The notes under the pieces: model-generated
What the model was told of the DNA's origin: nothing
Databases searched by the model: none
Seen by the model: the letters and a program-made list of their open reading frames with translations, nothing else
DNA from: Synechocystis sp. PCC 6803 substr. PCC-P
GTDB taxonomy: Bacteria > Cyanobacteriota > Cyanobacteriia > Cyanobacteriales > Microcystaceae
Reading direction: 5' to 3'
DNA: 32,000 nt
Assembly (NCBI RefSeq): GCF_000284455.1
Contig: NC_017039.1
Location: forward strand, 630,001 to 662,000
In this document: positions 13,624-32,000 of the stretch, piece after piece
Numbering within the stretch: the stretch's first letter is position 1
Layout: each line of letters starts with the position of its first letter
Made by a program: the position numbers and the translations under genes

Positions 13624-13651
13624 GTTTCCCCAGGAAAAATTAGGGGGAAAC
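13624..13651. terminator. Hairpin between convergent genes (possible weak bidirectional terminator)
   Basis: GTTTCCCC-aggaaaaattag-GGGGAAAC forms a perfect 8-bp stem with a 12-nt loop. It lies between the stop codons of the repeat protein (+) and frmB (-). There is no strong U-tract on either side. Confidence 0.3.
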
Positions 13652-14481
13652 TAGTTTAGCAGCGCCGCTCCATGCCAATCCATGTGATCACCGATGAAAC
13701 TAGCAATAAAGTAATAGCTATGGTCATAGCCCGGTTGCATACGGAGGGTGAGGGGATGGTTAGCCGCCGTGCAGGCCGCTTGGAGTAACTCTGGCCGCAA
13801 TTGGGTAGGGAGGAATGGATCAGCGTCGCCATAGTCCACGAAAAATGGTAGCCGCTCTGGAGCCGATTTAATCAGAGCACAGGTATCCCAAGCTTGCCAG
13901 CTTAACTGGTTATCCCCTAAATAAGCTTGGAAGGCCTTTTGTCCCCAGGGAACTTGAGTGGGGGCAACAATGGGAGAGAAGGTGGAAACACTGCGATAAC
14001 GACCGGGATTACGCAGGGCAATGACTAGGGCCCCATGGCCCCCCATGGAATGGCCAAAAATACTCCGGGCATCGGTGGCGGCAAAATTAGCCTCAATCCA
14101 CGTAGGCAGCTCTTGCACAATGTAATCATGCATTTGATAGTGGGCTGCCCAGGGAGGTTGGGTGGCGTTGAGATAGAAACCGGCTCCCATACCGAGGTCA
14201 TAATCTTCAGAATCAGTTACGCCTTCACCCCGGGGGCTAGTGTCTGGCGTCACCATAATTAGTCCATGCTTTGCTGCGTGCTGCTGTAGACCCGATTTAG
14301 TGATGGCATTTTGTTCAGTACAGGTGAGGCCAGACAGCCAGTACAAAACTGGGCAATGTTGGTTAGTAGCCTGGGGAGGCAGGTAAACGCCAACGTTCAT
14401 GGTGCAATTAAGCACAGCGCTGTGATGGCTATAAACGCTTTGCCAACCCCCAAAGCTGGCGTGGTGTTCTAATCGTTCCAT
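13651..14481 (-). CDS. frmB: S-formylglutathione hydrolase (esterase D family)
   Basis: Serine-hydrolase nucleophile elbow GHSMGGHGA, conserved LSGLTCTEQN and DHSYYFI motifs, and about 276 aa, typical of FrmB/FghA. It sits 8 nt downstream of frmA. Confidence 0.9.
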   Translation of the reverse strand: MERLEHHASFGGWQSVYSHHSAVLNCTMNVGVYLPPQATNQHCPVLYWLSGLTCTEQNAITKSGLQQHAAKHGLIMVTPDTSPRGEGVTDSEDYDLGMGAGFYLNATQPPWAAHYQMHDYIVQELPTWIEANFAATDARSIFGHSMGGHGALVIALRNPGRYRSVSTFSPIVAPTQVPWGQKAFQAYLGDNQLSWQAWDTCALIKSAPERLPFFVDYGDADPFLPTQLRPELLQAACTAANHPLTLRMQPGYDHSYYFIASFIGDHMDWHGAALLN

Positions 14482-14489
14482 GGGTTGTA

Positions 14490-15608
<1,119 letters not shown>

Positions 15609-15627
15609 TTAACGTTGAAGGGAATAA

Positions 15628-15700
15628 CGGGTGCGGCAGGATTCGAACCTGCGACCGTCCGCTTAGAAGGCGGATGCTCTATCCACTGAGCTACGCACCC
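15628..15700 (-). tRNA. tRNA-Arg (anticodon UCU), no encoded CCA
   Basis: Manual fold of the reverse complement: acceptor GGGTGCG/CGCACCC; D-arm GCTC-AGTGGATA-GAGC; anticodon stem TCCGC/GCGGA with loop CTTCTAA (anticodon TCT); T-arm GCAGG-TTCGAAT-CCTGC; 73 nt. Confidence 0.9.
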
Positions 15701-16006
15701 AGGCTTGCTACTCAATTCCATTCTCCCATATTTTTTGGGGCTAGGATTTCGGTGTTAATGGAATATTTCCGGGGGACAGGGAAAGGATAGTTGACAGCTA
15801 CGGCTGTTGACAGTGCACATCGGGACTGGGCAAAAGAGCAACAGATGGGGGCTTGCTGACATCATTACCCCGTTCCTTTTTGGCAACGGTCATTTGGGTG
15901 TGAATTTTTGTATCTTTCGCCTTTGCGTAGCGCATTTTTCAATAAAGGTCAATATACCATTAGTAGATTGTTTGGTTCATACCACGAAAAAATTGAGTCC
16001 CTGTTG

Positions 16007-16046
16007 AGACCGTCACCGTGGTTTTAAATCTTACCGACGGTCTTTT
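16007..16046 (+). terminator. Terminator-like hairpin in the orphan region upstream of the giant gene
   Basis: AGACCGTC (16007..16014) pairs with GACGGTCT (16036..16043) across a 21-nt loop and runs into TTTT. The long loop makes this weak. Confidence 0.25.
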
Positions 16047-16230
16047 CGCCATTATTGCAAGACTGCCCTGGTGGGCCGGGAGCCCAGGGAGATAAGTTTT
16101 AGCACGCTGTCTATGACCCGAATTCTGCTAGTTAGAGCAACGCTCAGGCGATCACCAATATTGCTGGCCAGTCCATCAAAAGCCTGAATTTGACCGTCGA
16201 CCCTCATTTTATTTGTGGAGCCTAGCCTTA

Positions 16231-19200
16231 ATGAGTATAACTTTATCTGATCGCCTTTCTGCCGTTGTTCAAGACAGTGCCGGAACGAGTCATATTGTTT
16301 GGCTAGAAGGAACCAATATTTGGCACGCTGTTTATGACCCAGTTTCTCAGACATGGAAAAATGCCCAGGCCATTGTCAATACCGCTGGTCAGAACATCCG
16401 AAGTCTTAATTTGGTTGCCGATTCAGGGTTAATTGTCGAATCTGGAACAAGCAATAATACGCTGATTCCAGGCGTGGCAGTTATTTATCAAGAAGGTCTG
16501 GAAAACGACAGTAACTTTTTCTATACCGCGGCGCGCTATGACAATGTTGGCAAACTGCAATGGCTCGAAGCCCCCCAGGCCCTGACAGCGGATCAAGTGG
16601 GGGATTTAGAACCTCGGGCGGTGGTAGACAACGGGGTTATTACAGTAGTCGGGCAAAAAGTTGATCTCGTCAAAGCCCAAAACCAGGCCATCCGGGAAGA
16701 TGCGGATCCATACTATCAAACCTTTCAAATTTACAGCAATCAGTTTTCCACAATCCCATCAACCCCAGTTACGCCCATCGCCGCTTATGCTCCCCAGATT
16801 ACTAAAGATGGTGTCGTTCAAGGCAACTACATTCAGCGGGACCAAAATACTGTGGCCGCATTACCCAGTGCTACTTACCAACCCTTGACCCTTGCAGAAA
16901 CACAATCCAGTAGCTTTCAGGGATGGGGGGCAAATTGGACAGTCTCCCAGACATTTGACACTAACCTAAGCAACTTAAAACTTTTTAAGGGAATGGCGGG
17001 TGTTCCTGAGGCTCTGCTTACGCCCATTTTTAAGAAATTCAATATTACTGGAACATTACTGGGATCTTCAGGTAACAATCCTAATCTTTCATTTTTTGGT
17101 GGCGGAATCAGTACAGAGGGAATATTACTCAATGCCTCGATGGCGGTTCAATTCAATGAAGATGACCAGGACACCAACAATACCTCATCTGGAACTGCAG
17201 GAAGCAGTCTCAATCCGGCAGAAAATACAACACAACTCTCCCGTAAGCCAGAAATTTCCCTCTCTGCCATTGCCGCGACCCTTTATACCTTTGATAAAAG
17301 CTTAGGTGAAGACAATCTTTCCTATCCTTTAACAGTAGAAACGGGCAGTCTTGGCCTAACAGTTGGCTTTACATTTCCGATTCCGATTGAAGGAACACCC
17401 ATTCTCTTTAACTTTTTAGGTAGTGCTGGCCTGGGAATGCAGTGGCAATTATCTCCGAAAGACCCTCAAACCTATGTGTCTCCTGTTGGGGCAGTTTTAT
17501 CTCCTACGGGTGGTGATTCTGATGCGGTACTGGCAGTCCTGTTTAATGTTCCTCCCTTGGGTGCTATCACGGCGATCGGACTGGCGGTAATCTCTGATAT
17601 TACTGAAGTAGTTGAGTTGATTTTCACCGACGTTGATCCTGACGGCAATGAAGCCATAGAACTCGAATCCTTGTTATTTTCGATACCGATTGCGACTGGT
17701 ATTGATGGCGGGATTAAAATCCCCTATGTTTTTGAAGCCTTAGCTGGGATTCAGGCGAGCTTAGTCGGAACCGTTGGCGGCACTCGGTCGGCGGATAATG
17801 GTGCATTTCAATATGACCGAGATCTAAGCCTGGGATTTCCGATGAATATCACCATTAAATTCTTGGGTTTTCTTGGCGGAACAGTGGGTATCTATCCCTA
17901 TTGGACTTGGGGTGATGATCCCAGTAGTAGTGCCAGTAATAGTGATTTCGCCACCCTTAATCAAGCCAGTGCCGATTCTCCCACGGCAATTGTGAGAGGG
18001 CCGCTATTAGAAATCCAAGGGTTACAAACTAACGGCACCCCCCAGGCCACAGATTTCCAAGTTAACGTCAAAGACCCCCTAGGCCAGACCACAACAGTTC
18101 CAGTTTTTGGGGTGATCACTCAGGGCAATACGACCATTCTCCGGCTTGAATCAGCAATTCCGCAAACCAACTTAAACGATCAGCCTTTTTCAAATATTAA
18201 GGTTACTTATCAAAATAATGCTCCGATTCCTGTTGTTAATCAATCGGCCAATACCTTTACCTATAATTACAATCCGATTAGTGGTACTAACAGTAATTAT
18301 CAAGTCACAGGTCAGCAGGTTGTAATTGCCTTTAATGCCACTCTAAATCCCAACATCATACCCGATTCATCTCTATTTCAAGTTACGGATACCAATGGCA
18401 ATTCAATCTCAATTTCCTCTGTTATTGTAACGTCTCGCAGTGTGATCTTAACTCTATCCGGATCGAGCAGCACCTATAGCGTTAGTTATTCGGGTAGTAG
18501 CAGTTCTGGAAATGTATTAACCACAGAAGATAATGTTGCAATTAGTGATTTTAAGATTGCCAGTAATACGCCACCAAGCACCGCTGGACAAGTGAATCGT
18601 ACCTATAGCAACGTGCCAGCAGGAACCACAAGTGCAATTACAACTAACCCCCTGCTCGGTAGTACAGTGGCCCAAGATTATGCTGAGGATAGCCCACCTG
18701 CTTTAGCTGTCACTGATTCTGGTGTGTTGCTGGCCTGGAGTAGTGATACCCCGCCGATTACACCCATTTCTGCCTTGCTATCGGGAACTACGATTATCCT
18801 CACTTTTGCTGACACCCTCGTAAATCTAATTAATACCAACAAGGCCACTAGTAATCCGTTTACAGTTCTAATTAATAATCAAAGTGTTGAAATTCAGGAT
18901 TCATCTAGCACAGGAAATTATGTTGCAATTTCGTTGAATTCAAGTACTGTTATTGATGCTGACGATACGATCTCGGTTAGCTACAGCATTGATTCCACAC
19001 TAGAAAATAGCCTCTTTAATCTTTACCTTTCTGATGCCACAGATTTCGCCTTGTGGGTGCCTGACTTTACCACGCCTGTGACGCAAGCAGCTAGTTCAAC
19101 CAATGCCCCAACGCTATTAGAAGCAGTGGCAATTTCCAATGTCATTACGCTCACCTTTGACCAAATCCTTTCATCTAGCAATCTTCCTCCTGGAAGTCAA

Positions 19201-22200
19201 TTTAAGGTTACAGTCAACAATTCCGATAATTTTATTACTGTGATCAATGAGGTAACAATTGAGAATAATTCTGTTACTTTGCCCTTATCAGAACCCATTG
19301 GACAAGGCGATATTGTTACCGTTAGCTATAGTTCTGGTGCTGGCACATTAGTTAATAGTAATAATATTCCCGTTGCTCCCTTTACAACAAGCGATATTCT
19401 GACCACATTTGCGAATCCTGGGACGGTGATTAAAACACTTTTAGCCACTCCCAGCACCTCAAGCGTTAGTATTGCCTATCCAAGCTCAATTATTGGGACA
19501 AGTGGCTTAAATTACGATCCAGCCGTGTATTTTAACCAGGCCACAAATCAGGTATTTGCTGCTTGGGTGAATGTTGATAGTAGCCAAATTCAGAATCAAC
19601 TCATCCCAGGCCAATATTATAGCAACTTAGAGATTATTACCCAGGCCCTGCAAAGCTCAACTATTTACTTTTCTGTTGCCTCTTTAAAGGATCTTGGTGA
19701 TCTTGGCCCCAACGGTCAAATCATTCCCTGGTCAGTGGCCGCCCCCATTCCCCACCAGCAAACAGGACAGAATACCAATGTCACGCTTGGCCTGGGGCCT
19801 GATGGTTCGATTATGGCGGCCTGGTTAAATACCACACTGGATAATAATGGTACGCCCACAACCACGATTTACTATTCCACACTCAATCAAAATGATAGCT
19901 CCCCGGTCTGGTCTGCCCCTGTTCCCATACTTCCCGACATTAATCCCGATGCCTTTACGCCCCTAACCATTAGTACGATCAATCAACAACCAGCAATTTT
20001 CTGGACTGAATCTTCCCCAGCATCCTATCGTCAGTTAGTTCTTAATGCCGCCCCATCGGTTTATTTACGTCTTGGGGAAAGGACTGGTGATGTAGCCCGC
20101 AATAGTGGTCAGTTTCAAGCCGCCGCCAATGGCACCTATAGCGGTACTTTTACTCTGGGGGAAATGGGAGCCTTAGAAACCACAAGTAACACTGGTGATC
20201 CCAATCCTGCCGTGCTGTTTCAAGGTGGGGGTGTAACGCTTGATCAACCTGTACCTCTGACAAACCAGGCTTTTGCGATTGAGTTTTGGTTTAAGTTGCC
20301 CAATTTACCTCGGGAATCTATCAATCTAGTTTCCGCACTGGGATTATTTGGCCTGGGCCTGGAGGTTGATCCCAATGATCCTAATGCGCCACCGAAACTT
20401 ACCTTTGGCCTGGGTAATGATGATCAGAGCCAAATCCAAGCTAGTGAAACCTTTGCCACTGATGTTTGGTATTACGTTGTTGGTACCTATGATGGCTCAA
20501 GTCAAAACCTGAGTTTGTATCTCAATGGTGTCTTAGCTGGAACCCTGGATGATGTGGAATTTGATCCGTTTCCCACCGCAGCGGCCTTAGCTTTAGCAGG
20601 GGCTTCTACAGCGAATAATCCGGTTTATTTAGATGAAGTGGCATTCTATCCCAAGGCATTAACAGCTTCTAATGTCAATGCGGCAGATTTAACCAATGCA
20701 AATTTCCAAAACCTAACAGGTAGCCAAATTCTTGAGATCATTGCGGGGACAAATCAAATTGGCAACCACTACGCCGCCCAATACAACCAGCCGGTTCCCC
20801 CAGGCCCTAATACTTATTATTCCGTTTCGGATGGTTCAAGTTGGCAACTCCCTAGTCAAATTAACCCCACACCCGCAATCGTTCCCACCCAGTTAGCCGG
20901 GGCCAATATCCCTGTTTTCGATTTAGTCTCTGCCACTCCCGCCCAGGCCAGCACCGCGATTGCGCCCAATGGAATTGCTGATGCCGTTTATCAGATTTCG
21001 CTTTCTAATCCAAACTTAACTATCAGCGGAATTAAAGTTACTAGTGGCAACCAGGCCTGGGCGATTGGCACCGACGACAATGGCACAGCACTCACGGGTA
21101 ATCAGCTTGGCCTACTTTTAGGAGATACCCTACTCAACAGTCTTAATCCCGATACTCAATCCTTTAGCTATCCAATTCAGGGATATACCGAAAATCTCTT
21201 TTTATTCATTGATCCCGGCAGTTCCAATACTACTCTTGGGCCAGTTGAAGTTACGGTTTATTTCGAAAACAACGATAATACCCCTACACCGTTTTCTGTT
21301 GCTCCCTATCAGATAAATATGGCAACAATGGGGCCAGATCAAACAGTTACAGGAACAGCAACGGTTACTGAAGCCAATGATTCCTCCCTCGCCCTAATTG
21401 ATAGTGGGTTTATTATTAATTCCGATAATCCGGCGATCGGGTATGTTTTGGCCAGTGCGTTTAATTCCGATGGTACTTTAGCCTATGTGGCAGTGGGGAA
21501 TCGTGGCTATAGCGACAGTCAGGGCAATGTTCTTAACAACGGGACTGTCCAGATCTTGTTTAGTTGCAGTGATATTCTCTCTGGCAGTGGCTCATTAAGT
21601 ACAACAATTCTCAATGGCAATCCTGATGGGGTTTTAATTACCAATATTCAAGATGCGGGGGATAATCAGCGGAACCTTTCGCTTTCCTTAGCTACGGGAG
21701 ATATTGACGGGGATAGCATTCCTGATTTAGTGATTGGTGCGCCCAATGTGGGTAACTTTGCTGGAGCGGTTTACGTCATCTATGGCAGTTATCTCAGCAA
21801 TCAAAAAGGACAAATAATTGATGTCACAAATCTCAGCACGAAACCTAACACTATGGGTTTTGTGGTTAATGGCAATGAAGCGGAAGACTTAGCGGGCTTT
21901 TCAGTAGTGGTGGGGAACTTTGATGGGGATAGCTATGGTGACATTGTTTACGGTGCGCCCTACGCCAAAGATAGTAACGGGAATCGGGTTGGCCAGGTTT
22001 ATCTAGTTGCTGGTTTTGCCCAAGGAAGTGCTCCAGACTCAATTAGCCCTACAGTCATTTATTCTGGCAAAAGTTTTGATATTCCCAATCCCCAACCGAA
22101 TCCACCAAGTCAAACCCTAACAGTGGGTGAAGGGGCAGGGTTTGCACTGGGAGTTTCACGGCGACTGAGTAATGGACCATCTACATTTACAGGTAGCACA

Positions 22201-25200
22201 ACGACAGATGATCTCTTTATTGGCGCGCCCAACTATCAAATTCAAGTCGTAAATCAATGGACAAATCAAAGTAATCTCCCAGGCCAAAACTCACAAAACC
22301 AACAAAATCAACAAATCACATCAGACCTTTTTCCTAGTTCCAGTTTTGTTTCAGCCGGGGCCGTTTATGTCTATAACTCTAATCAAGGCTTAAGTCTTAA
22401 AACAAATCCTTGGGCCATCTATACCGGGCCAACGATTCCCAATGCTCAAGGCACTGCCACTAGTTATTTTGCTGGAACTGTGATTGGCTCGGGTTTGAAT
22501 ACGGATTTCACAGATTATGACGGAGATGGCCGCCAAGATTTAGTGATTGCCGGGCCTGGGGCCAATACCAACACGGGGCAAGCCTTTGTGATTGGTGGGT
22601 CTACTGCAACTCCATCTGTAACAACTACACAATCTGGAATAACTACAACAACTACACAAGCCTTAAATACAGTCAGTAACCTCGTGATCAATGGTGGATT
22701 AAGTGGGGGCAAAGCGGGAACAGTCATTACTTCAGTGGGAGACTTAAACCATGATGGCTATCAAGACCTTTTAATTACTGCGCCCCAAGGAGCCAATGCT
22801 ACGGGTCAAAGTTATGTCTTATTTGGGACATTGAATTTAAGTGAATTCGGGACTGTTTTTGATCTCAATGTCACCGCTAACGACAACAAAACCACATTTT
22901 TACTCAATGGCGATCAACCCTTCCAGGCTACGGGAACAGCAGCAGTTGGTGTGGGTGATATTAACAATGACGGCGTAGATGACCTAATGCTCACGGCTCC
23001 AGTGGGTCAACAACTTTATGCGGTTTATGGGCATCCCTGGTTAGCGGACGATGGCAGTATCAAACTTGCGGATGTTTCTTCTAATAATGGCTTTGTCATT
23101 GATGGCTACGAATATTCCCTCCCATCTAGCCCCTTTGGTTATGTCCTCAGTTTTGATCTTGTTTATGGCAATGATTTTGAACTGGTTTCTGCTTGGTTGC
23201 AGTTAATTTCGCCCACTGGTCAAGTCATCTGGCGCTCGAATCCAGGAGAAGGAGTAACGGTTACGCCCGAAGCCTATGCCATTATGCAAAGTGACGGCAA
23301 CTTTGTGATTTACGGCCAACCAGGGGGGAATTCAGGGGATGTCATTTGGAGTTCCAATACAGCAGGGAATAGCGGGGCTGTTCTGAAATTAGCCTCGGAT
23401 GGCGGTCTTTATATTGTTGATTCCGAGGGCAATATTGTCCCCAATGGTACTCTAAATCCTGGGAATACTAGCCTGATTACTAATGCTGTTACCCTCGACG
23501 AAAATCAAGAAATTAATATCAGTCTCGATACCTTTCTGTCCAATGGGGAGAATGGCGGCAGTCTCTTTGGTAATGGCCTCAACATTGTAATGGTTGGGGA
23601 TGTTAATGGCGATGGCTTTGCTGATGTGATTTCTGGGGGAAGTCCGGCTGGGGGAGTGCTTATTTTTGGCAACAGCACTAAAGATTTACTCGATGCAGCC
23701 CTAGGCACTGACGATTTAATTATTTCGGTGGAAAACGCTCAAGTTAAAGAGTTTGTTGCCCTTGGAGATTTTGATGGGGATGGCTTAGCTGATTTTGGCG
23801 TTATTGATGATCAAGGCAACTTCTTTCTGGTTTTAGGCAGTCCGGAATTAGGTAGCCAAGGTAGCCTTGTTATTGACTCTACTTTGCCAAATTTATCTAA
23901 CTTTAACCAGGCCTGGGGAGTCGGAGATTTTAATGGCAACGGTTACGATGATTTTGTCTTACAAGGCCCTAATTCTACGATCGCCGTTTACGGTAACGCT
24001 AATGGAACATTAACCGACTCATCTCCTTTAACGTTTGGTAACAATTTCCCCCTACCCAGTTCTTTCACAGGTATTGATTTAAATGGCAATGGCATCAAGG
24101 AAATTGTCGCCGGTCAGCCCAACTTAAACCCAGTCCCTAATATCGGTGGCTTTGGTGGTGGTTTACAGTATTTTACCTATGAGGCTGGAAATGCGGTTTT
24201 ACAACCAACGGTTAATCCTCCCAATGCCTCAGTTACGGAGGCTTCTGGTCTGTCTTCATGGGGACAAATTTCGTTTCCTAATCAATATGCCCAAGCTGGT
24301 GTGCCGTCATTTGCAACGTTAGATGGCTGGCTGTATCAAGCATTTTACGGAATCAACGAGCGTATTTCCACTAAAGATTCATACATTTATATCCAACGAA
24401 GCCGAGATGGAGTCAGCTGGGAAAACCTCACTCAAGTCGTCCCGCTCGATAGCAATGGTACGCCGATTGATCTTAAGAATTTGCCCCCCTCAATTACGGC
24501 TTACAATGGCACACTTTATTTAGGCTTTACTGCTGACAATGGCCAGGTGTGGGTTGCAGAAGGAGTCAATACTAATGCCAACTCCGGGATACTCATCAAT
24601 GCCGTCCCAATCAATCAAGCCTCCAATAATGGCCCAACATTAGTGGCCTTTAATGATGAACTCTATGTATTCTTTGTTAAAGATGCTTCCGATAATGACA
24701 TTCTCTATTCCAGTTCCAGCAATCCAGGGAGTAGTAGTGGCTGGGATGGTACCAGTACCGTTCTCACGTTTAGCGATGTTAACCAGGCGACTAATTTCCC
24801 CCTCAGTGCTACCGTTGTCCCTGGATTAGATGGGGATACTCTTGCCGTAGCATTTCGTTCTAATAACTCCCCCGCAACTTGGGTCGGCCTTCTCAACTCC
24901 AGCGATGTAACAAATTGGCAGGGTTCGGCAGAATTAACCCAGGTTGACGCCAACTCCCAAGTATCCCTAACTGTGGTAGATGGGACTTATTATTTATTTT
25001 TCACTTCAAGCACTGAGGCTAGTGCTTCATATGCTACCTCTACAGATGGCTTGAATTGGGGAGATATCACATTAATTCCCTGGGATGATGGCAACCTTGG
25101 TGGTGTTGCATCAATCTTATTTAATCAAAGCTTTATTTTATCATTGAATCAAAGTAATAATGAATCTCTTCTTTTTGCTTTTTCAAATTCATTATTCGAG

Positions 25201-28149
25201 CCGAATCAAGCAAGTCGTTGGGGTGAGCAAGTCCGGGACATTGGTGATTTTAATGGAGATGGTATTGCTGATTTAGCCGTGTTGGCCCCTGGCTACCGAA
25301 ATCTACTGCAATTTCCAATTTTAGACTACCCAGCTATCAACAATTTAGGGGGTGTGTTCATTTACTACGGAGAGGAGAGTGGGATTTCGGTTAATGATCC
25401 TCCTGATGTTGTTTTAGCTGCGCCTGATCTTCCCCAGGAAACCATTTTTGAATTACTGGAAATTACTCCTACTGGTGATGTAAATGGAGATGGCTTTGAT
25501 GATTTGTTAATTAGTGCACCTCTCACCCCTGTTATTGCTGGTCAATTTCCTGATGTCAATGGTGATCAAGGGGTAAGCTGGGTCGTTTTTGGCGGAACCC
25601 ATTGGGGAACTGAGTACACCGCAAATTCGCCTTTCGGTTTAGGGAACCTTGCCAACAATCAAACCAATAATAGTCAAAACTTTAATCCCTATGGTTTTGT
25701 GACGACTGGATTACCGAGATCCCAAGCTGGTATTTCCATCAGTGGCGGGGCAGATGTAAATGGTGATGGTTTTAGTGATTTTGCCCTAGGTGCGCCGGGT
25801 AACTTTGACAATCTCAGTTATGTGCTGTTTGGCAGTGACTTTACCAACCAAGTCAATCAACTGGGAACCATTGGCGATGATGTCATGTTGGGCAGTCCCA
25901 CAGGGGAAATATTTGTTGCTGGCCAAGGAGATGATCAAATTTATACCAATGGCGGGGTGGATACGGTTTATGCCGGCCCTGGGAATGATTTCGTGACGGT
26001 CACTGATACGAATTTCCGACGGTTGGATGGCGGCAGTGGCAATAATATTCTCAAGTTTACGGGCTACACAAATCAAGATTGGGATTTAACCACTCTTTCC
26101 CCAGGCCTGCGACTGAAAAATTTTAATATTCTCGATGTCCGGGATTACGGGGCTAATATCCTTACCCTCAATGCTCTGACGATTACACAACTTTCAGCTA
26201 ATAACGAAGTTCGGGTTCTTTTAGACGCCAATGACAAGATCAATCTAGATTCAAGTTTTAGCTTTAGTGAAAAAGTCTATCTCGATAACCAAAACTATTA
26301 TCTTTATACCTCTAACGCTTCAGCCGCCACTGTGTTGGTCAATGTCCCCTCCAATCAGGTTACGTTTACTGCTACGACGAGCAATTCCCCCAGTCTCAAC
26401 CTAATTCCCACGGCTCAACCCAATGCTCCTACTACCACCGATGTAACCATCCTCGCCGCCACTAATTCTGACCCAAATCAACCCACCCGTTTATTTGTCT
26501 CTAACCCGAAAGTTTCCGAAGCTGCTGGAGAGGCCCAGTTTGTCATTGAGCGCACGGGAGACTTAAACAAATATGTGTTGGTCAGCTACATCACCCAGGA
26601 TATGAGTGGCAAAGCTGGCGATCGCTATTTACCCATAGCAGGACAGTTAATATTTAATCCTGGAGAGAACCAAAAAAACATCACAGTTAAAATTCCTACT
26701 GACTCTGTTTATACCGCCGATCGCCAATTTAGCCTATTGGTTTCTTTGCTGAATGATGGTTTGGAAGCAGGAGATTGGGGCGATGCTTTTGCTTTAGCCG
26801 GTGATGCCAATGGTGCCCAGATCCGTCGTTGGAACTACCTGGCCGGGAATTGGGATAACAGTGTCATGGGTGGCTTGATTGATTTCTCCACCACGGTTAA
26901 TTCCGACCAAGCTGAGATTCATTTGAGTGTTGAAGGCTTAGGGGAATTTAACGACTTTTTTGGTTACGATCCCCTCAGCCAAACCTATCAATCCATAATG
27001 TTTAATGGTGCCACAGGGGCCCGGCTCACCAATTCAGATAGCCCAAACGCTATTGGCGGAGTAGAACTTAAACTTTTGGACGGCGATCGAGGTGATGCCG
27101 ATGGCATAGTTAATGGTTTGGTGGCAACTAATGGTTATGCGGGCCGCACCATCCCAGGCTTAATTAGCAATAATAACCGAGTTTTTTGGGCTCCCACCAA
27201 CGCCGATGGCCAAGTGCAACTCAGGTTAATCAATAGCCCCTCACAAAACTATGAAATTGGTTGGGTTATGGTGGATAGTGCCGATGGTGCCATTGATGGT
27301 TTACTTCCTGATGATCCGGGCTATGAGGAGGCCGCTTTGGCCCGCAAACAAGCTGTTTTTAGTGATCAAGCCAATGCCTCAGCCCAGGCTTTAACCCGTA
27401 GTTTAGCCCGACAAAGTTTTACTGATATTGAAGCTTTTGCCAGGACAGAATCACAATTTTTTGGTAGCTTTAGTAACTCTAATTTAGAAGCTAATCGTTA
27501 CTATATGCTCTATAGTCAACAGGGAGAAGAAATTGCTTTTTCCATTGATGCTCCACTAATGGTTGAAACAGATAGTCGAGGTTATCATCAGTTAGATTTT
27601 AATGGCATTACTACAGAAATCGCTTCCAAAACTTTGGTTGTGCCGGGAATTTTAAACCAGACTGTGACGACAAATGTTTCCATTAGTCGTGCGGGGGCTT
27701 ACGAAAATCTTATTGTTCTCTACAAAGTGGATAGTCTGACCGGGGGCATTGATACCGATGGCGATCGCCAGATTAATTTAAACCCAGGGGATGTGGGCTA
27801 TGTACAGGCGGCATTAACCAGGGCCCAGAATCCAGCAACGGGGCTAAGCTTAAACGCCCCTGACGAGTTTTTTAGCACTACTCAAAAGACCATCAGTTTG
27901 TCGGGCAATAATATTTATGGCATGGCGATTATTCCCAACTCATCCATCGAAGAAGTGTTAAGCAAAAATCCCACTAACGACCCGAACCTTGGCCCTGTGG
28001 CCCTTTTTTCTTTTGAGCAAGCCAATCCTGGGGGAGTGAGCCAAATGAGTCGTCTGGGTAGTAACCTGTTTGGTTTTGAAGATATGGTGGGCGGCGGCGA
28101 TCTTGACTACAATGACATAATTTTACAATTCAGCTTTCTAACTTCATAA
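16231..28149 (+). CDS. Giant (about 3970 aa) multidomain cell-surface / adhesin-like protein with FG-GAP, Calx-beta, lectin, LamG and DUF4114 modules
   Basis: A single uninterrupted frame. The ORF-track start 16213 is a TTG; I prefer ATG 16231, which has GGAG 10 nt upstream. Domains are identified by motif and listed as separate features. From memory this corresponds to slr1028, one of the Synechocystis 'integrin alpha / beta4 domain homologue' proteins. Confidence 0.9.
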   Translation: MSITLSDRLSAVVQDSAGTSHIVWLEGTNIWHAVYDPVSQTWKNAQAIVNTAGQNIRSLNLVADSGLIVESGTSNNTLIPGVAVIYQEGLENDSNFFYTAARYDNVGKLQWLEAPQALTADQVGDLEPRAVVDNGVITVVGQKVDLVKAQNQAIREDADPYYQTFQIYSNQFSTIPSTPVTPIAAYAPQITKDGVVQGNYIQRDQNTVAALPSATYQPLTLAETQSSSFQGWGANWTVSQTFDTNLSNLKLFKGMAGVPEALLTPIFKKFNITGTLLGSSGNNPNLSFFGGGISTEGILLNASMAVQFNEDDQDTNNTSSGTAGSSLNPAENTTQLSRKPEISLSAIAATLYTFDKSLGEDNLSYPLTVETGSLGLTVGFTFPIPIEGTPILFNFLGSAGLGMQWQLSPKDPQTYVSPVGAVLSPTGGDSDAVLAVLFNVPPLGAITAIGLAVISDITEVVELIFTDVDPDGNEAIELESLLFSIPIATGIDGGIKIPYVFEALAGIQASLVGTVGGTRSADNGAFQYDRDLSLGFPMNITIKFLGFLGGTVGIYPYWTWGDDPSSSASNSDFATLNQASADSPTAIVRGPLLEIQGLQTNGTPQATDFQVNVKDPLGQTTTVPVFGVITQGNTTILRLESAIPQTNLNDQPFSNIKVTYQNNAPIPVVNQSANTFTYNYNPISGTNSNYQVTGQQVVIAFNATLNPNIIPDSSLFQVTDTNGNSISISSVIVTSRSVILTLSGSSSTYSVSYSGSSSSGNVLTTEDNVAISDFKIASNTPPSTAGQVNRTYSNVPAGTTSAITTNPLLGSTVAQDYAEDSPPALAVTDSGVLLAWSSDTPPITPISALLSGTTIILTFADTLVNLINTNKATSNPFTVLINNQSVEIQDSSSTGNYVAISLNSSTVIDADDTISVSYSIDSTLENSLFNLYLSDATDFALWVPDFTTPVTQAASSTNAPTLLEAVAISNVITLTFDQILSSSNLPPGSQFKVTVNNSDNFITVINEVTIENNSVTLPLSEPIGQGDIVTVSYSSGAGTLVNSNNIPVAPFTTSDILTTFANPGTVIKTLLATPSTSSVSIAYPSSIIGTSGLNYDPAVYFNQATNQVFAAWVNVDSSQIQNQLIPGQYYSNLEIITQALQSSTIYFSVASLKDLGDLGPNGQIIPWSVAAPIPHQQTGQNTNVTLGLGPDGSIMAAWLNTTLDNNGTPTTTIYYSTLNQNDSSPVWSAPVPILPDINPDAFTPLTISTINQQPAIFWTESSPASYRQLVLNAAPSVYLRLGERTGDVARNSGQFQAAANGTYSGTFTLGEMGALETTSNTGDPNPAVLFQGGGVTLDQPVPLTNQAFAIEFWFKLPNLPRESINLVSALGLFGLGLEVDPNDPNAPPKLTFGLGNDDQSQIQASETFATDVWYYVVGTYDGSSQNLSLYLNGVLAGTLDDVEFDPFPTAAALALAGASTANNPVYLDEVAFYPKALTASNVNAADLTNANFQNLTGSQILEIIAGTNQIGNHYAAQYNQPVPPGPNTYYSVSDGSSWQLPSQINPTPAIVPTQLAGANIPVFDLVSATPAQASTAIAPNGIADAVYQISLSNPNLTISGIKVTSGNQAWAIGTDDNGTALTGNQLGLLLGDTLLNSLNPDTQSFSYPIQGYTENLFLFIDPGSSNTTLGPVEVTVYFENNDNTPTPFSVAPYQINMATMGPDQTVTGTATVTEANDSSLALIDSGFIINSDNPAIGYVLASAFNSDGTLAYVAVGNRGYSDSQGNVLNNGTVQILFSCSDILSGSGSLSTTILNGNPDGVLITNIQDAGDNQRNLSLSLATGDIDGDSIPDLVIGAPNVGNFAGAVYVIYGSYLSNQKGQIIDVTNLSTKPNTMGFVVNGNEAEDLAGFSVVVGNFDGDSYGDIVYGAPYAKDSNGNRVGQVYLVAGFAQGSAPDSISPTVIYSGKSFDIPNPQPNPPSQTLTVGEGAGFALGVSRRLSNGPSTFTGSTTTDDLFIGAPNYQIQVVNQWTNQSNLPGQNSQNQQNQQITSDLFPSSSFVSAGAVYVYNSNQGLSLKTNPWAIYTGPTIPNAQGTATSYFAGTVIGSGLNTDFTDYDGDGRQDLVIAGPGANTNTGQAFVIGGSTATPSVTTTQSGITTTTTQALNTVSNLVINGGLSGGKAGTVITSVGDLNHDGYQDLLITAPQGANATGQSYVLFGTLNLSEFGTVFDLNVTANDNKTTFLLNGDQPFQATGTAAVGVGDINNDGVDDLMLTAPVGQQLYAVYGHPWLADDGSIKLADVSSNNGFVIDGYEYSLPSSPFGYVLSFDLVYGNDFELVSAWLQLISPTGQVIWRSNPGEGVTVTPEAYAIMQSDGNFVIYGQPGGNSGDVIWSSNTAGNSGAVLKLASDGGLYIVDSEGNIVPNGTLNPGNTSLITNAVTLDENQEINISLDTFLSNGENGGSLFGNGLNIVMVGDVNGDGFADVISGGSPAGGVLIFGNSTKDLLDAALGTDDLIISVENAQVKEFVALGDFDGDGLADFGVIDDQGNFFLVLGSPELGSQGSLVIDSTLPNLSNFNQAWGVGDFNGNGYDDFVLQGPNSTIAVYGNANGTLTDSSPLTFGNNFPLPSSFTGIDLNGNGIKEIVAGQPNLNPVPNIGGFGGGLQYFTYEAGNAVLQPTVNPPNASVTEASGLSSWGQISFPNQYAQAGVPSFATLDGWLYQAFYGINERISTKDSYIYIQRSRDGVSWENLTQVVPLDSNGTPIDLKNLPPSITAYNGTLYLGFTADNGQVWVAEGVNTNANSGILINAVPINQASNNGPTLVAFNDELYVFFVKDASDNDILYSSSSNPGSSSGWDGTSTVLTFSDVNQATNFPLSATVVPGLDGDTLAVAFRSNNSPATWVGLLNSSDVTNWQGSAELTQVDANSQVSLTVVDGTYYLFFTSSTEASASYATSTDGLNWGDITLIPWDDGNLGGVASILFNQSFILSLNQSNNESLLFAFSNSLFEPNQASRWGEQVRDIGDFNGDGIADLAVLAPGYRNLLQFPILDYPAINNLGGVFIYYGEESGISVNDPPDVVLAAPDLPQETIFELLEITPTGDVNGDGFDDLLISAPLTPVIAGQFPDVNGDQGVSWVVFGGTHWGTEYTANSPFGLGNLANNQTNNSQNFNPYGFVTTGLPRSQAGISISGGADVNGDGFSDFALGAPGNFDNLSYVLFGSDFTNQVNQLGTIGDDVMLGSPTGEIFVAGQGDDQIYTNGGVDTVYAGPGNDFVTVTDTNFRRLDGGSGNNILKFTGYTNQDWDLTTLSPGLRLKNFNILDVRDYGANILTLNALTITQLSANNEVRVLLDANDKINLDSSFSFSEKVYLDNQNYYLYTSNASAATVLVNVPSNQVTFTATTSNSPSLNLIPTAQPNAPTTTDVTILAATNSDPNQPTRLFVSNPKVSEAAGEAQFVIERTGDLNKYVLVSYITQDMSGKAGDRYLPIAGQLIFNPGENQKNITVKIPTDSVYTADRQFSLLVSLLNDGLEAGDWGDAFALAGDANGAQIRRWNYLAGNWDNSVMGGLIDFSTTVNSDQAEIHLSVEGLGEFNDFFGYDPLSQTYQSIMFNGATGARLTNSDSPNAIGGVELKLLDGDRGDADGIVNGLVATNGYAGRTIPGLISNNNRVFWAPTNADGQVQLRLINSPSQNYEIGWVMVDSADGAIDGLLPDDPGYEEAALARKQAVFSDQANASAQALTRSLARQSFTDIEAFARTESQFFGSFSNSNLEANRYYMLYSQQGEEIAFSIDAPLMVETDSRGYHQLDFNGITTEIASKTLVVPGILNQTVTTNVSISRAGAYENLIVLYKVDSLTGGIDTDGDRQINLNPGDVGYVQAALTRAQNPATGLSLNAPDEFFSTTQKTISLSGNNIYGMAIIPNSSIEEVLSKNPTNDPNLGPVALFSFEQANPGGVSQMSRLGSNLFGFEDMVGGGDLDYNDIILQFSFLTS
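17980..19390 (+). other. Four or more SwmB-like / Ig-like beta-sandwich repeats within the giant protein
   Basis: Recurrent pattern 'xx(I/V)xLTFxxxL...xxFxVxxNxxxxxIxxVxxxxxxVxLxLxxxxxxxDxVxVSYS'. Example 1: NVITLTFDQILSSSNLPPGSQFKVTVNN...NSVTLPLSEPIGQGDIVTVSYSS. Example 2: TTIILTFADTL...NPFTVLINNQSVEI...DDTISVSYS. Example 3: QQVVIAFNATLNP...SLFQVTDTNGNSISISSVIVTSRSVILTLS...YSVSYSG. Confidence 0.55.
20050..20680 (+). other. LamG / concanavalin-A-like lectin domain (Laminin_G_3-like)
   Basis: The order of motifs is typical of bacterial LamG_3 modules: VYLRLGERTGDVARNSGQ...NGTYSG...AFAIEFWFKL...DVWYYVVGTYDGSSQNLSLYLNGVLAGT...VYLDEVAFYPKALTASNV. Confidence 0.65.
21440..23060 (+). other. FG-GAP (integrin-alpha beta-propeller) repeat block 1
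   Basis: Repeated Ca-binding loops DxDxDGxxD followed by xxGAP...G.xYVxxG. The loops are GDIDGDSIPDLVIGAPN..GAVYVIYG, GNFDGDSYGDIVYGAPYA..GQVYLVAG, DYDGDGRQDLVIAGPGA..GQAFVIGG, GDLNHDGYQDLLITAPQG..GQSYVLFG and GDINNDGVDDLMLTAP..QLYAVYG. Confidence 0.8.
23190..23460 (+). other. Bulb-type (GNA-like, B_lectin) mannose-binding lectin domain
   Basis: AIMQSDGNFVIYGQPGGNSGDVIWSSNTAGNSGAVLKLASDGGLYIVDSEGNIV contains one exact QxDxNxVxY site (QSDGNFVIY, nt 23287..23313), the WxSNT motif, and a degenerate second site (ASDGGLYIV). Confidence 0.7.
23560..24125 (+). other. FG-GAP repeat block 2
   Basis: The loops are GDVNGDGFADVISGG, GDFDGDGLADFGVIDDQGNFFLVLG, GDFNGNGYDDFVLQG and IDLNGNGIKEIVAG. Confidence 0.75.
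24290..25200 (+). other. Asp-box (BNR)-containing beta-propeller-like region
   Basis: There are two exact SxDGxxW Asp-boxes: SRDGVSW at nt 24400..24420 and STDGLNW at nt 25039..25059. They sit among recurring blade-like strands: LDGWLYQAFYG, YNGTLYLGFTADNGQVWVA, FNDELYVFFV, VDGTYYLFFTS. Confidence 0.5.
25230..25850 (+). other. FG-GAP repeat block 3
   Basis: The loops are GDFNGDGIADLAVLAPG, GDVNGDGFDDLLISAP and ADVNGDGFSDFALGAPGNFDNLSYVLFG. Confidence 0.75.
25860..26060 (+). other. RTX-like glycine/aspartate-rich calcium-binding repeat segment
   Basis: GTIGDDVMLGSPTGEIFVAGQGDDQIYTNGGVDTVYAGPGNDFVTV...LDGGSGNNILKF resembles degenerate GGxGxD nonapeptide (hemolysin-type) repeats. Confidence 0.5.
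26490..26760 (+). other. Calx-beta domain
   Basis: LFVSNPKVSEAAGEAQFVIERTGDLNKYVLVSYITQDMSGKAGDRYLPIAGQLIFNPGENQKNITVKIPTDSVYTADRQFSLLVSL follows the Calx-beta pattern: V.E..G...v.V.R.G......v.y.T.dgtA.ag.DY....g.l.F.pGe..k.i.v.i.dD...E..E.F.v.L. Confidence 0.75.
27930..28146 (+). other. C-terminal DUF4114-like domain
   Basis: The terminal sequence PVALFSFEQANPGGVSQMSRLGSNLFGFEDMVGGGDLDYNDIILQFSF carries the characteristic FEDxxGGGDxDYND motif. Confidence 0.7.
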
Positions 28150-30873: not shown

Positions 30874-31227
30874 ATGCCCACCCCACAAGCACTGTATCGC
30901 GGGGCTGTACAAGCTCAAGGTGACGACATTACACAAAATGGGGGCTATACTCGCTCTTGGGCGCGGGGTACTCCTGTGACGGCTCAAGAGGGATTAGACT
31001 TTCTTGCTAAGATTGAGGAACAATGCAATGAGTCTCAGAAAGAACAACGAAATTCAGCTTTTGTCAAAGCTGAACGTTTTATCAAGAATGCTAGTAAAAA
31101 TGGAGGTGTTGATCAAAATTCTCAACCTCATCCTTTTCAAAATCCTAGACGTACTGTTCCAAACGCTCGTGTTGATATTGAAATTCGCAAAGGTTTGACT
31201 TTTATTCCTGCTAAAAATTTGGAATGA
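30874..31227 (+). CDS. Hypothetical protein (117 aa), first gene of an AT-rich two-gene cassette
   Basis: ATG-initiated ORF. Its TGA stop overlaps the ATG of the next ORF (ATGA at 31224..31227). I recognise no family motif. Composition shifts from GC-rich at the 5' end to AT-rich. Confidence 0.5.
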   Translation: MPTPQALYRGAVQAQGDDITQNGGYTRSWARGTPVTAQEGLDFLAKIEEQCNESQKEQRNSAFVKAERFIKNASKNGGVDQNSQPHPFQNPRRTVPNARVDIEIRKGLTFIPAKNLE

Positions 31228-32000
31228 CAATACTTTTTACCAAAATTCAAGCAATGTCAGACTCTACCGATTTGGATAGAGCAATAGATAAGCTTGACAA
31301 AATTTCTATTAATTTTGGTGCCGTAGATGAACAGATAAGGTGTTTTGCATTTTTATTAGCAATTGCCGAAGAAAATATTGCTGAGATTGTCTTAGGTATA
31401 TTAGTTAGAGGAATCATGAAATATGAACCAAATAGGGTTAATAATGAAGTTCTTTGGCTATTTTTGGCAGCCGTTTTGTCTCGTTCAAATATTACGCCTG
31501 CCAGTGCTTTAAGAATTAGTCTTTTAGGAATAGTATCTCGTATTGAAGATTGGGCATCACCCATTTTTGCATTACTAGTTACCGCATTAGATAGTTTTTT
31601 ACGTAATAGCCTGGAATATGGAGACCCTTTAATTGCAGAGCAAACTTTAGATTTTCTTGCCACTTGGGGCGAGAATTATGCTCAAGCACCTCGTACTTTA
31701 GAGCAAGTTGCAAAGATTAACTCTTTAGCTCGTTTAGTTTTACAAAAAGTTGATGAACCTATTCTTCAGGAGGAATGGTCAGAAGGGTTAGATTTATTTT
31801 TAAATATTGCTCATATTGCTTGTAAAATAAAATATTCAGATCAACGTATTTGGTCGTCTTCAGTAGAACTACTTAAGGATCTCTATCCTGTAAATATTTT
31901 AAATAATAATAATGAATATTCAGACAAGCACCGTCAAGTTCAAAAAAATATTCTAAAATTAATTGATTCTTCTCTGGCTGTAATCGGAACTATTTTTGTT
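31224..32000 (+). CDS. Hypothetical all-helical protein, 3'-truncated by the window end (not in the supplied ORF track)
   Basis: My own translation of the frame starting at ATG 31224 gives MTILFTKIQAMSDSTDLDRAIDKLDKISINFGAVDEQIRCFAFLLAIAEENIAEIVLGILVRG...KLIDSSLAVIGTIFV. It is open for all 259 codons to base 32000. The frame is closed upstream by TAA at 31212. The listed minus-strand ORF 31247..31663 is its antisense shadow. Confidence 0.6.
   Translation, partial: MTILFTKIQAMSDSTDLDRAIDKLDKISINFGAVDEQIRCFAFLLAIAEENIAEIVLGILVRGIMKYEPNRVNNEVLWLFLAAVLSRSNITPASALRISLLGIVSRIEDWASPIFALLVTALDSFLRNSLEYGDPLIAEQTLDFLATWGENYAQAPRTLEQVAKINSLARLVLQKVDEPILQEEWSEGLDLFLNIAHIACKIKYSDQRIWSSSVELLKDLYPVNILNNNNEYSDKHRQVQKNILKLIDSSLAVIGTIFV

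Follow-up and report, generated by a model that had tools for sequence, protein, structure and literature searches.

Slr1028 of Synechocystis sp. PCC 6803: domain architecture of a giant FG-GAP protein and its reading as a candidate glycan-binding adhesin

What is the role of a cyanobacterial protein of nearly four thousand residues that is assembled from integrin-like, lectin-like and calcium-binding modules? The question is raised by the gene slr1028, which occupies more than a third of a 32,000-nucleotide stretch of Synechocystis sp. PCC 6803 substr. PCC-P (contig NC_017039.1, positions 630,001 to 662,000 of the forward strand; hereafter the window). Its product, still without a function, is one of the largest that the principal cyanobacterial model organism makes. 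According to our analysis, Slr1028 is best understood as a giant, Ca2+-stabilised protein exported to the cell surface or the medium, where it would serve as a multivalent glycan-binding adhesin; we assign this reading a probability of roughly 55%. An earlier interpretation made from the nucleotide sequence alone (the sequence-only reading) had proposed a glycan-directed role in adhesion or recognition, and this is still the role that we infer. The gene itself is no discovery: it has been annotated since the 1996 genome, and because the homology of its FG-GAP and Calx-beta domains to integrins was published in 1999, the finding as such is already known. What we add are refinements of the description, and hypotheses that can be tested.

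The list of open reading frames (ORFs) contains a single plus-strand frame at window positions 16213..28149, corresponding to 3978 amino acids (aa) if counted from an upstream TTG. Read from the ATG at 16231, the coding sequence (16231..28149; plus strand, as for all modules described below) comprises 3972 codons and a stop. The product starts with MSITLSDRLSAVVQDSAGTSH, is 3972 aa long, contains no internal stop and is identical to Slr1028 (BAA17165.1; UniProtKB: P73139) of Synechocystis sp. PCC 6803, so that the single uninterrupted frame of about 3970 codons seen previously is real. By our own arithmetic, the chance of such a frame staying open is (61/64)^3970, or about e^-190. Since the identical product is recorded on 212 contigs, the frame is not a one-off assembly artefact either. 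The protein, named 'SwmB domain-containing protein' by NCBI, is as acidic, rich in N, S, T and G and poor in cysteine as had been noticed: it has one Cys (aa 1779), 370 Asp and Glu against 114 Lys and Arg, and about 37% of G, S, N and T together. Only one basic residue lies within the first 40 positions, and of the 19-mer windows that begin in residues 1-29 the most hydrophobic scores 0.52; hence no Sec or lipoprotein signal is recognised, in agreement with the earlier view. Ca2+ loops of the type D-x-[DN]-x-[DN]-G-x-x-D occur eleven times; ten lie within FG-GAP blocks, and the eleventh is at aa 467.

Pfam was searched with the whole protein and with ten overlapping segments, using the curated gathering cut-offs. 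Seven of the eight named modules either exceed the curated thresholds or are supported independently, i.e. SWM, LamG, FG-GAP, RTX, Calx-beta, DUF4114 and the bulb-type lectin (B-lectin). Accordingly, the SwmB-like Ig repeats, the LamG domain, the RTX-like repeats, the Calx-beta domain and the C-terminal DUF4114, all of which had been named from motifs, exceed their cut-offs. Profile searches with hidden Markov models (HMMs) recover every named domain type directly except the Asp-box region, which has no direct match.

Central to the interpretation is the arrangement of the FG-GAP repeats. They reach 181.5 bits in Pfam against a cut-off of 22.1, in nine stretches, and the PDB sequences matched by these parts are the propellers of the integrins alpha-V, alpha-4 and alpha-IIb. 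Three separate propeller blocks had been described; three blocks of FG-GAP there are, but their seven, four and three blades fit two propellers better than three. Propeller 1 (about aa 1740-2290; 21448..23100) has seven blades, six of which were mapped by motif and jackhmmer at aa 1808-2283, while the seventh, just upstream, was read by eye. The same mapping places four blades of the second block at aa 2440-2639 and three blades of the third at aa 2991-3219; we assign them to propeller 2 as blades 1-4 (aa 2440-2689; 23548..24297) and blades 5-7 (aa 3006-3219; 25246..25887). The simplest reading suggested by these repeats is that of two seven-bladed FG-GAP propellers, the second being split between blades 4 and 5 by an Asp-box-like propeller. 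The stretch aa 2430-3230 aligns collinearly with the relatives P0131, P0133 and P0135 (metagenomic or genomic), at 38-60% identity, and the split arrangement is therefore conserved. The four and three blades would close into a single ring. An AlphaFold2 (AF2) model of the stretch has a mean pLDDT (predicted local distance difference test score) of 66.5 and a pTM (predicted template modelling score) of 0.54.

The segment that separates the two halves, about 315 aa long (aa 2690-3005; 24298..25245), is a predicted six-bladed Asp-box-like beta-propeller. No Pfam or NCBIfam profile matches aa 2690-3015 directly, BNR-type profiles included. Canonical S-x-D-x-G-x-T-W Asp-box motifs do not occur in the insert; it holds only two shortened forms, S-x-D-G-x-x-W, of which one reads SRDGVSW (aa 2724) and the other STDGLNW (aa 2937). 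Its sequence shows six repeats that resemble blades. With HMMER, 1.84 billion representatives were searched exhaustively; this yielded 185 relatives, and the sampled ones match the BNR_2, DUF6242, BT_1020 propeller and GH43 families. The AF2 model of the insert is all-beta, with block-mean pLDDT mostly at 70-85 and a few low blocks. Its best Foldseek matches are the Photorhabdus PLL/PHL lectins (E ~1e-10, TM-score ~0.6 for the target length, root-mean-square deviation (rmsd) 11-20 Å), and GH33 sialidases are matched with an rmsd of 5.6 Å over about 380 columns. The Asp-box propeller-like region proposed earlier thus holds with respect to its BNR-type relatives and to a model that resembles propeller lectins and sialidases, but not as a direct HMM match. 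In an alignment of eight insert sequences, Q, G, P and L are the only invariant residues, and none of the sialidase catalytic residues (Arg triad, Tyr/Glu, Asp) is conserved; judging from this alignment, we read the insert as a non-catalytic propeller. Its own sequence contains 6 Arg and no His.

Between the two FG-GAP propellers lies a bulb-type (monocot mannose-binding) lectin domain (aa 2291-2420; 23101..23490). The mannose lectin postulated from motifs is sub-threshold in Pfam, but is supported independently. It matches the NCBIfam model of putidacin L1 (1e-10, far below the cut-off of 275 of that full-length model) and, in PDB, putidacin (3m7h, 7.5e-5) and garlic lectin. Moreover, the mannose motif QxDxNxVxY is present in its exact form, QSDGNFVIY, at aa 2353-2361 (nt 23287-23313).

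The part of the protein upstream of propeller 1 contains two further modules with clear matches. A stalk of SWM (SwmB-type) Ig-like repeats extends over about aa 621-1090 (18091..19500) and is matched by SWM_repeat (PF13753; 7e-27, 93.9 bits against a cut-off of 27, three stretches) and by TIGR02059 (51.6 against 40.1). A LamG or concanavalin-A-like domain follows at aa 1332-1482 (20224..20676; Laminin_G_3, 77-81 bits). The regions on either side of it, aa 1091-1331 (19501..20223) and aa 1483-1739 (20677..21447), have no Pfam or NCBIfam match. The same is true for aa 1-175, which form an all-beta N-terminal domain in the AF2 model (16231..16755; pLDDT mostly ~70-85, low at aa 119-128 and 142-159), and for the N-terminal 620 aa as a whole. 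A word-indexed search of 5.8 billion proteins found only three relatives of these 620 aa, in Synechocystis sp. B12, S. salina and Geminocystis. When searched for hidden repeats joining the N-terminus, aa 1090-1330 and the insert, self-BLAST gave marginal matches only.

Within this lineage-restricted part, aa 176-620 (16756..18090) are a candidate membrane or envelope anchor. Four of the eight strongest hydrophobic 19-mers of the whole protein fall at aa 374-555, with a peak at aa 436-454 (VLFNVPPLGAITAIGLAVI), and these hydrophobic segments are kept in S. salina; the region may anchor Slr1028 in the envelope. Built with three relatives, the AF2 model of aa 1-620 has an overall pLDDT of 41; aa 176-620 remain at 20-40 and only aa 1-175 are usable. 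Because confidence is low and Foldseek returned no match for the aa 1-620 model at E <= 0.001, we claim no anchor fold. Neither a LapA-type retention module nor a LapG cleavage motif was recognised in the N-terminal 620 aa, although no motif-specific search was made.

A short run of RTX nonapeptides at about aa 3220-3275 (25888..26055) is recovered by HemolysinCabind as one single stretch (aa 3221-3255, 27-31 bits against a cut-off of 23) and has weak matches to the RTX regions of serralysin and hemolysin. It is followed by a segment of about 135 residues (aa 3256-3390; 25996..26400), whose counterpart in 10 of 13 simpler FG-GAP/RTX proteins ends 1-29 residues from the C-terminus (phmmer against the collected relatives). 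As the segment is terminal in these simpler relatives, we consider aa 3256-3390 to be an internalised tail of the type I secretion system (T1SS) type. In Slr1028 and its close relatives it is internal; in Slr1028, Calx-beta and a 446-aa module are still to come, and the segment does not hold the place at the extreme C-terminus, after the RTX block, that is usual for a type I secretion tail. With a single short RTX run and an internal tail, dependence on TolC and a T1SS is less straightforward than the sequence-only reading implied. The architecture suggests that a cassette of Calx-beta and DUF4114 was appended to an ancestral T1SS-type protein.

The Calx-beta domain (aa 3414-3526; 26470..26808) scores 97-99 bits in Pfam (96.7 bits for the whole protein, against a cut-off of 27) and matches the Ca2+-binding domain of the Na/Ca exchanger NCX1 and integrin beta4 in PDB. 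The remaining C-terminal module (aa 3527-3972; 26809..28146) has a DUF4114 core at aa 3804-3969, with a Pfam match (PF13448) at aa 3894-3968 of 42-48 bits against a cut-off of 27. An acidic cluster, F-E-D...D-x-D-Y-N-D (aa 3949-3962), is invariant in 21 sequences. The module is terminal in 23 of 27 carriers (21 of 24 search hits) and, in the relative P0134, ends 2 residues before the end of the protein; exceptions are P0135, P0300 with 34 further residues, and the fragment P0282. Sec-like N-termini are found in none of the 24 search hits carrying the module, which is joined to diverse extracellular-type passengers. In P0135, a 2893-aa metagenomic relative, DUF4114 is followed by 311 further residues that include a long RTX block of canonical type, and the family therefore includes members with a classical terminal RTX end. 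A profile of the C-terminal module matched no PDB sequence. In other proteins, DUF4114 is the mannose-binding domain of Acanthamoeba MBP, which binds mannose-agarose (PMC11934332), and in PilY1.1 of Myxococcus its Ca2+ site is required for twitching that depends on exopolysaccharide (EPS; PMC9109919). Given that DUF4114 binds mannose elsewhere (PMC11934332), the three putative carbohydrate-binding modules counted before (LamG, B-lectin, Asp-box) could in fact be four.

The comparison with relatives shows a conserved domain order and, at the same time, shuffled modules. An intact orthologue of 4158 aa is encoded by S. salina LEGE 00031 (L003:1382-13858) in a different gene neighbourhood. Its identity to Slr1028 is 99% at aa 3701-3800 and falls to 52-58% at aa 2501-3000, i.e. 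in propeller 2 and the insert, as opposed to 85-99% elsewhere; no other part diverges as much as the insert with its neighbouring blades. This orthologue has two copies of the B-lectin region in tandem, B-lectin is placed after the RTX run in P0134, and P0007 has a BNR-like domain where B-lectin stands in Slr1028. Relatives thus exchange or duplicate modules, and the designation 'mosaic' is apt. A locus search with the single insert sequence led to S. salina LEGE 00031 and, apart from it, only to a remote match in Pseudomonas. Downstream of the orthologue in S. salina, at a distance of about 4 kb, lies a gene for a PMT-type protein O-mannosyltransferase (L003:17950-19386, minus strand), which is suggestive beside a protein with a mannose lectin, but may be a coincidence. 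In Geminocystis herdmanii (L001:10001-21278) the orthologue is spread over at least four consecutive ORFs in three frames of a finished chromosome; frameshift errors, a gene split or decay to a pseudogene could account for the broken frame. It adjoins a gene for a 3803-aa FG-GAP/Calx giant and a pair of hybrid histidine kinase and response regulator. For Synechocystis sp. B12 only fragments of the gene are annotated, and in S. salina LEGE 06155 the fragmentation coincides at least partly with an assembly gap (X residues).

Slr1028 was quantified by mass spectrometry in four Synechocystis exoproteome samples (PMC11424642, supplementary data), which is consistent with the extracellular location expected from the letters alone; in the same study, the paralogues Slr0408 and Slr1403, likewise present in the exoproteome, are among the giant acidic proteins regarded as putative T1SS substrates. 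A search for slr1028 in the supplement of a spatial-proteomics paper (PMC12341915) gave no match. An intragenic NtcA peak was mapped in slr1028 under nitrogen starvation (PMC5714215), and the gene has a fold change of 2.0 in the EPS-export mutant kpsM (PMC7885315, Table S1). The literature on integrin alpha and beta4 homology to which the sequence-only reading had referred does exist: the FG-GAP/Calx homology of the Synechocystis giants goes back to May & Ponting (1999), as cited in PMC3192720.

From these observations we propose the following model. The lineage-specific N-terminal region with its hydrophobic segments is a candidate envelope anchor, so that the N-terminus would stay close to the cell, and the SwmB-type Ig-like repeats would form a stalk presenting a head. 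The head would consist of LamG, the seven-bladed integrin-type FG-GAP propeller and the bulb-type lectin with its one intact predicted mannose site. The second FG-GAP propeller would bear the six-bladed Asp-box-like propeller, predicted to be non-catalytic, in a topology analogous to the I-domain insertion of integrin alpha; the short RTX roll, Calx-beta and a terminal DUF4114 lectin-type module with a putative acidic Ca2+ site would follow. Export probably proceeds by a type I-like route with a C-terminal signal, and folding outside the cell would depend on Ca2+. Up to four of the modules would bind glycans, namely B-lectin, DUF4114, the inserted propeller and perhaps LamG; with them the protein could attach to mannose-containing glycans or those of EPS, the S-layer or lipopolysaccharide, and hence mediate adhesion between cells, or of cells to matrix or surfaces. 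A more specific version, for Slr1028 and its few relatives in cyanobacteria, combines three elements: a fast-evolving, non-catalytic lectin propeller between blades 4 and 5 of an FG-GAP propeller as an independent bacterial counterpart of the I-domain; the DUF4114 module as a new C-terminal class of export-plus-lectin element that replaces the RTX tail in signal-less cyanobacterial surface proteins; and a hydrophobic N-terminal envelope anchor. That all three would hold together is a tentative idea, and rather doubtful.

A number of points weigh against the adhesin. LamG and Calx-beta domains are not necessarily sugar binders. B-lectin (PF01453) reaches 20 bits, below the Pfam cut-off of 32.4; of its three sites just one is intact, and a direct reading of the sequence shows the other two to be degenerate. 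The T1SS-type tail stops about 580 residues short of the C-terminus, and the RTX run before it is short; no T1SS or other secretion genes are found next to slr1028 or within the 32-kb window. The AF2 model of the N-terminal region is unreliable. As for the closed second propeller, Foldseek aligns integrins to the aa 2430-3230 model over about 600 columns, but with an rmsd above 20 Å, and these matches are therefore no proof of one closed ring. Pairs of high-scoring segments bridging the insert in contiguous FG-GAP proteins were also considered and dismissed as proof of closure; 105 such 'bridges' were counted, a number that is uninformative because FG-GAP arrays align in any register. The exoproteome dataset labels Slr1028 by PSORTb as 'cytoplasmic membrane' and 'secreted: No' (PMC11424642), and detection there does not exclude cell lysis. 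Finally, we found no experiment on slr1028 itself in the literature; none of its main-text mentions is functional.

Which other roles are conceivable? Slr1028 could be a motility-associated surface protein like SwmB of Synechococcus, its SWM repeats marking a giant protein of the cell surface that movement requires, and modulating type IV pilus-dependent twitching or phototaxis via EPS binding. This would fit the SWM_repeat and TIGR02059 matches, the implication of DUF4114 in EPS-dependent pilus motility of Myxococcus (PMC9109919) and the Synechocystis DUF4114 protein sll0723, which is discussed in a motility context. Yet the SWM repeats account for only ~470 of 3972 residues and resemble Ig-type spacers, Synechocystis does not swim, no motility-screen hit for slr1028 was found in the literature, and the gene is reported not to be conserved in PCC 6714, a close relative of this strain (PMC5386190), so that we regard a motility protein as unlikely. 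Quite improbable, too, is an effector of competition or recognition, whose lectin and insert would target the glycans of other cells, be it as a lectin-like bacteriocin, in kin recognition or as a decoy related to grazers or phages. Such an effector would be in line with the lectin-like bacteriocin putidacin L1 as the best B-lectin match, with the divergence of the insert and adjacent blades between orthologues, and with a lectin that is duplicated in S. salina at a non-syntenic, strain-variable locus. On the other hand, profile searches of Pfam and NCBIfam detected no toxin, nuclease, peptidase or pore-forming domain anywhere in Slr1028, there is one B-lectin domain where LlpA bacteriocins have two in tandem, and no immunity-like small ORF stands out downstream of the gene.

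If the Asp-box propeller were an active sialidase or glycoside hydrolase, the other modules could be carbohydrate-binding domains that target an extracellular enzyme to polysaccharide. The GH33 matches of the model and the GH43 and BNR_2 matches of the insert relatives point in this direction. The insert itself, however, has no glycosidase-family match, is poor in Arg and devoid of His, and its best structural matches are non-enzymatic propeller lectins; since the Arg triad, Tyr/Glu and Asp are not conserved in the eight sequences, we rejected the sialidase reading of the insert, and an enzyme has very little probability. We give as little credence to a decaying or dispensable accessory gene of little present function. 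It would explain why slr1028 is reported as not conserved in PCC 6714 (PMC5386190), why the Geminocystis orthologue is split over several ORFs in three frames and why only fragments are annotated in Synechocystis sp. B12, but intact frames of 3972 codons in PCC 6803 and 4158 codons in S. salina, detection by mass spectrometry and transcriptional responses (PMC5714215, PMC7885315) are at odds with it, and the fragmentation in S. salina LEGE 06155 is at least partly an assembly gap. With intact frames and a detected protein, a pseudogene was discarded.

The adhesin, which we prefer over these alternatives, resembles several known systems without being identical to any. Like the Synechocystis giants Slr0408 and Slr1403, Slr1028 is acidic and signal-peptide-less and combines FG-GAP with Calx-beta (Slr0408 also has DUF4114); in contrast to them, its N-terminal 620 aa matched no PCC 6803 paralogue in the word-indexed search. 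With the integrin alpha head it shares FG-GAP blades with D-x-D-x-D-G-x-x-D Ca2+ loops and a domain of ligand-binding type between blades, but the insert is a predicted beta-propeller between blades 4 and 5, whereas the domain inserted in some integrin alpha chains is of vWA type and separates blades 2 and 3. Thigh and calf legs, a transmembrane segment with cytoplasmic tail and a beta-subunit partner are all lacking in Slr1028, and the homology is at the domain level only. The RTX/LapA-type T1SS adhesins LapA, MpIBP and FrhA are likewise very large, acidic and Cys-poor, lack a Sec signal, have RTX repeats and an Ig-like repeat stalk with ligand-binding modules toward the C-terminal part, and depend on Ca2+, as Slr1028 presumably does; unlike in these adhesins, the RTX run of Slr1028 is single, short and non-terminal, and T1SS genes are not adjacent. 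SwmB of marine Synechococcus has the SWM repeat (PF13753/TIGR02059) in common with Slr1028, in which the repeats are minor, the remaining architecture is unrelated and the host is non-swimming. The similarity of the insert to PLL/PHL lectins and GH33 propellers is one of fold, with repeated beta-sheet blades and some Asp-box-like turns; identity is 12-17%, six blades are predicted compared with seven in PLL, and sialidase residues are not conserved. With Acanthamoeba MBP and Myxococcus PilY1.1, finally, Slr1028 shares DUF4114, which in Slr1028 exceeds the Pfam threshold and has the invariant acidic Ca2+-type motif; in those two proteins the domain is N-terminal, while that of Slr1028 is the extreme C-terminus of a larger conserved module of ~330-445 aa.

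If Slr1028 is a Ca2+-dependent multivalent lectin adhesin, it would provide a handle on how Synechocystis sticks to cells, to its own EPS and S-layer, and to surfaces, with relevance to flocculation, biofilm formation and biotechnological harvesting. The nested propeller, the single intact mannose site, the internalised RTX tail and the terminal DUF4114 turn the vague label 'integrin-like' into testable constructs and mutants.

The neighbours of slr1028 in the window are housekeeping genes: an aminotransferase, a cupin, a fibrillin, an esterase and an alcohol dehydrogenase (ADH) upstream, ChlI and TyrS downstream. A tRNA-Arg(TCT) gene (15627..15701, minus strand) flanks the intergenic region 15702-16230; the start of slr1028 is 530 nt away, so that the tRNA gene is upstream of it. 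According to the literature, the sRNA Ncr0280 (TU643) precedes slr1028, and both are reported not to be conserved in strain PCC 6714 (PMC5386190). These features suggest a strain-variable locus adjoining a tRNA gene. A promoter and terminator scan of the region upstream of slr1028 yielded nothing beyond chance level. Published RNA-seq data include several antisense RNAs for slr1028; a 100-aa antisense ORF that overlaps the start of the gene (16052-16354, minus strand) is probably spurious. At the far end of the window (31001-32000), the GC content drops to 0.335 compared with 0.43-0.53 elsewhere, and the two small ORFs located there have no Pfam match. The zinc alcohol dehydrogenase (class III-type) and the 'putative esterase' at 13651-15599 (minus strand) have the appearance of a FrmA/FrmB-like pair for formaldehyde detoxification, unrelated to Slr1028.

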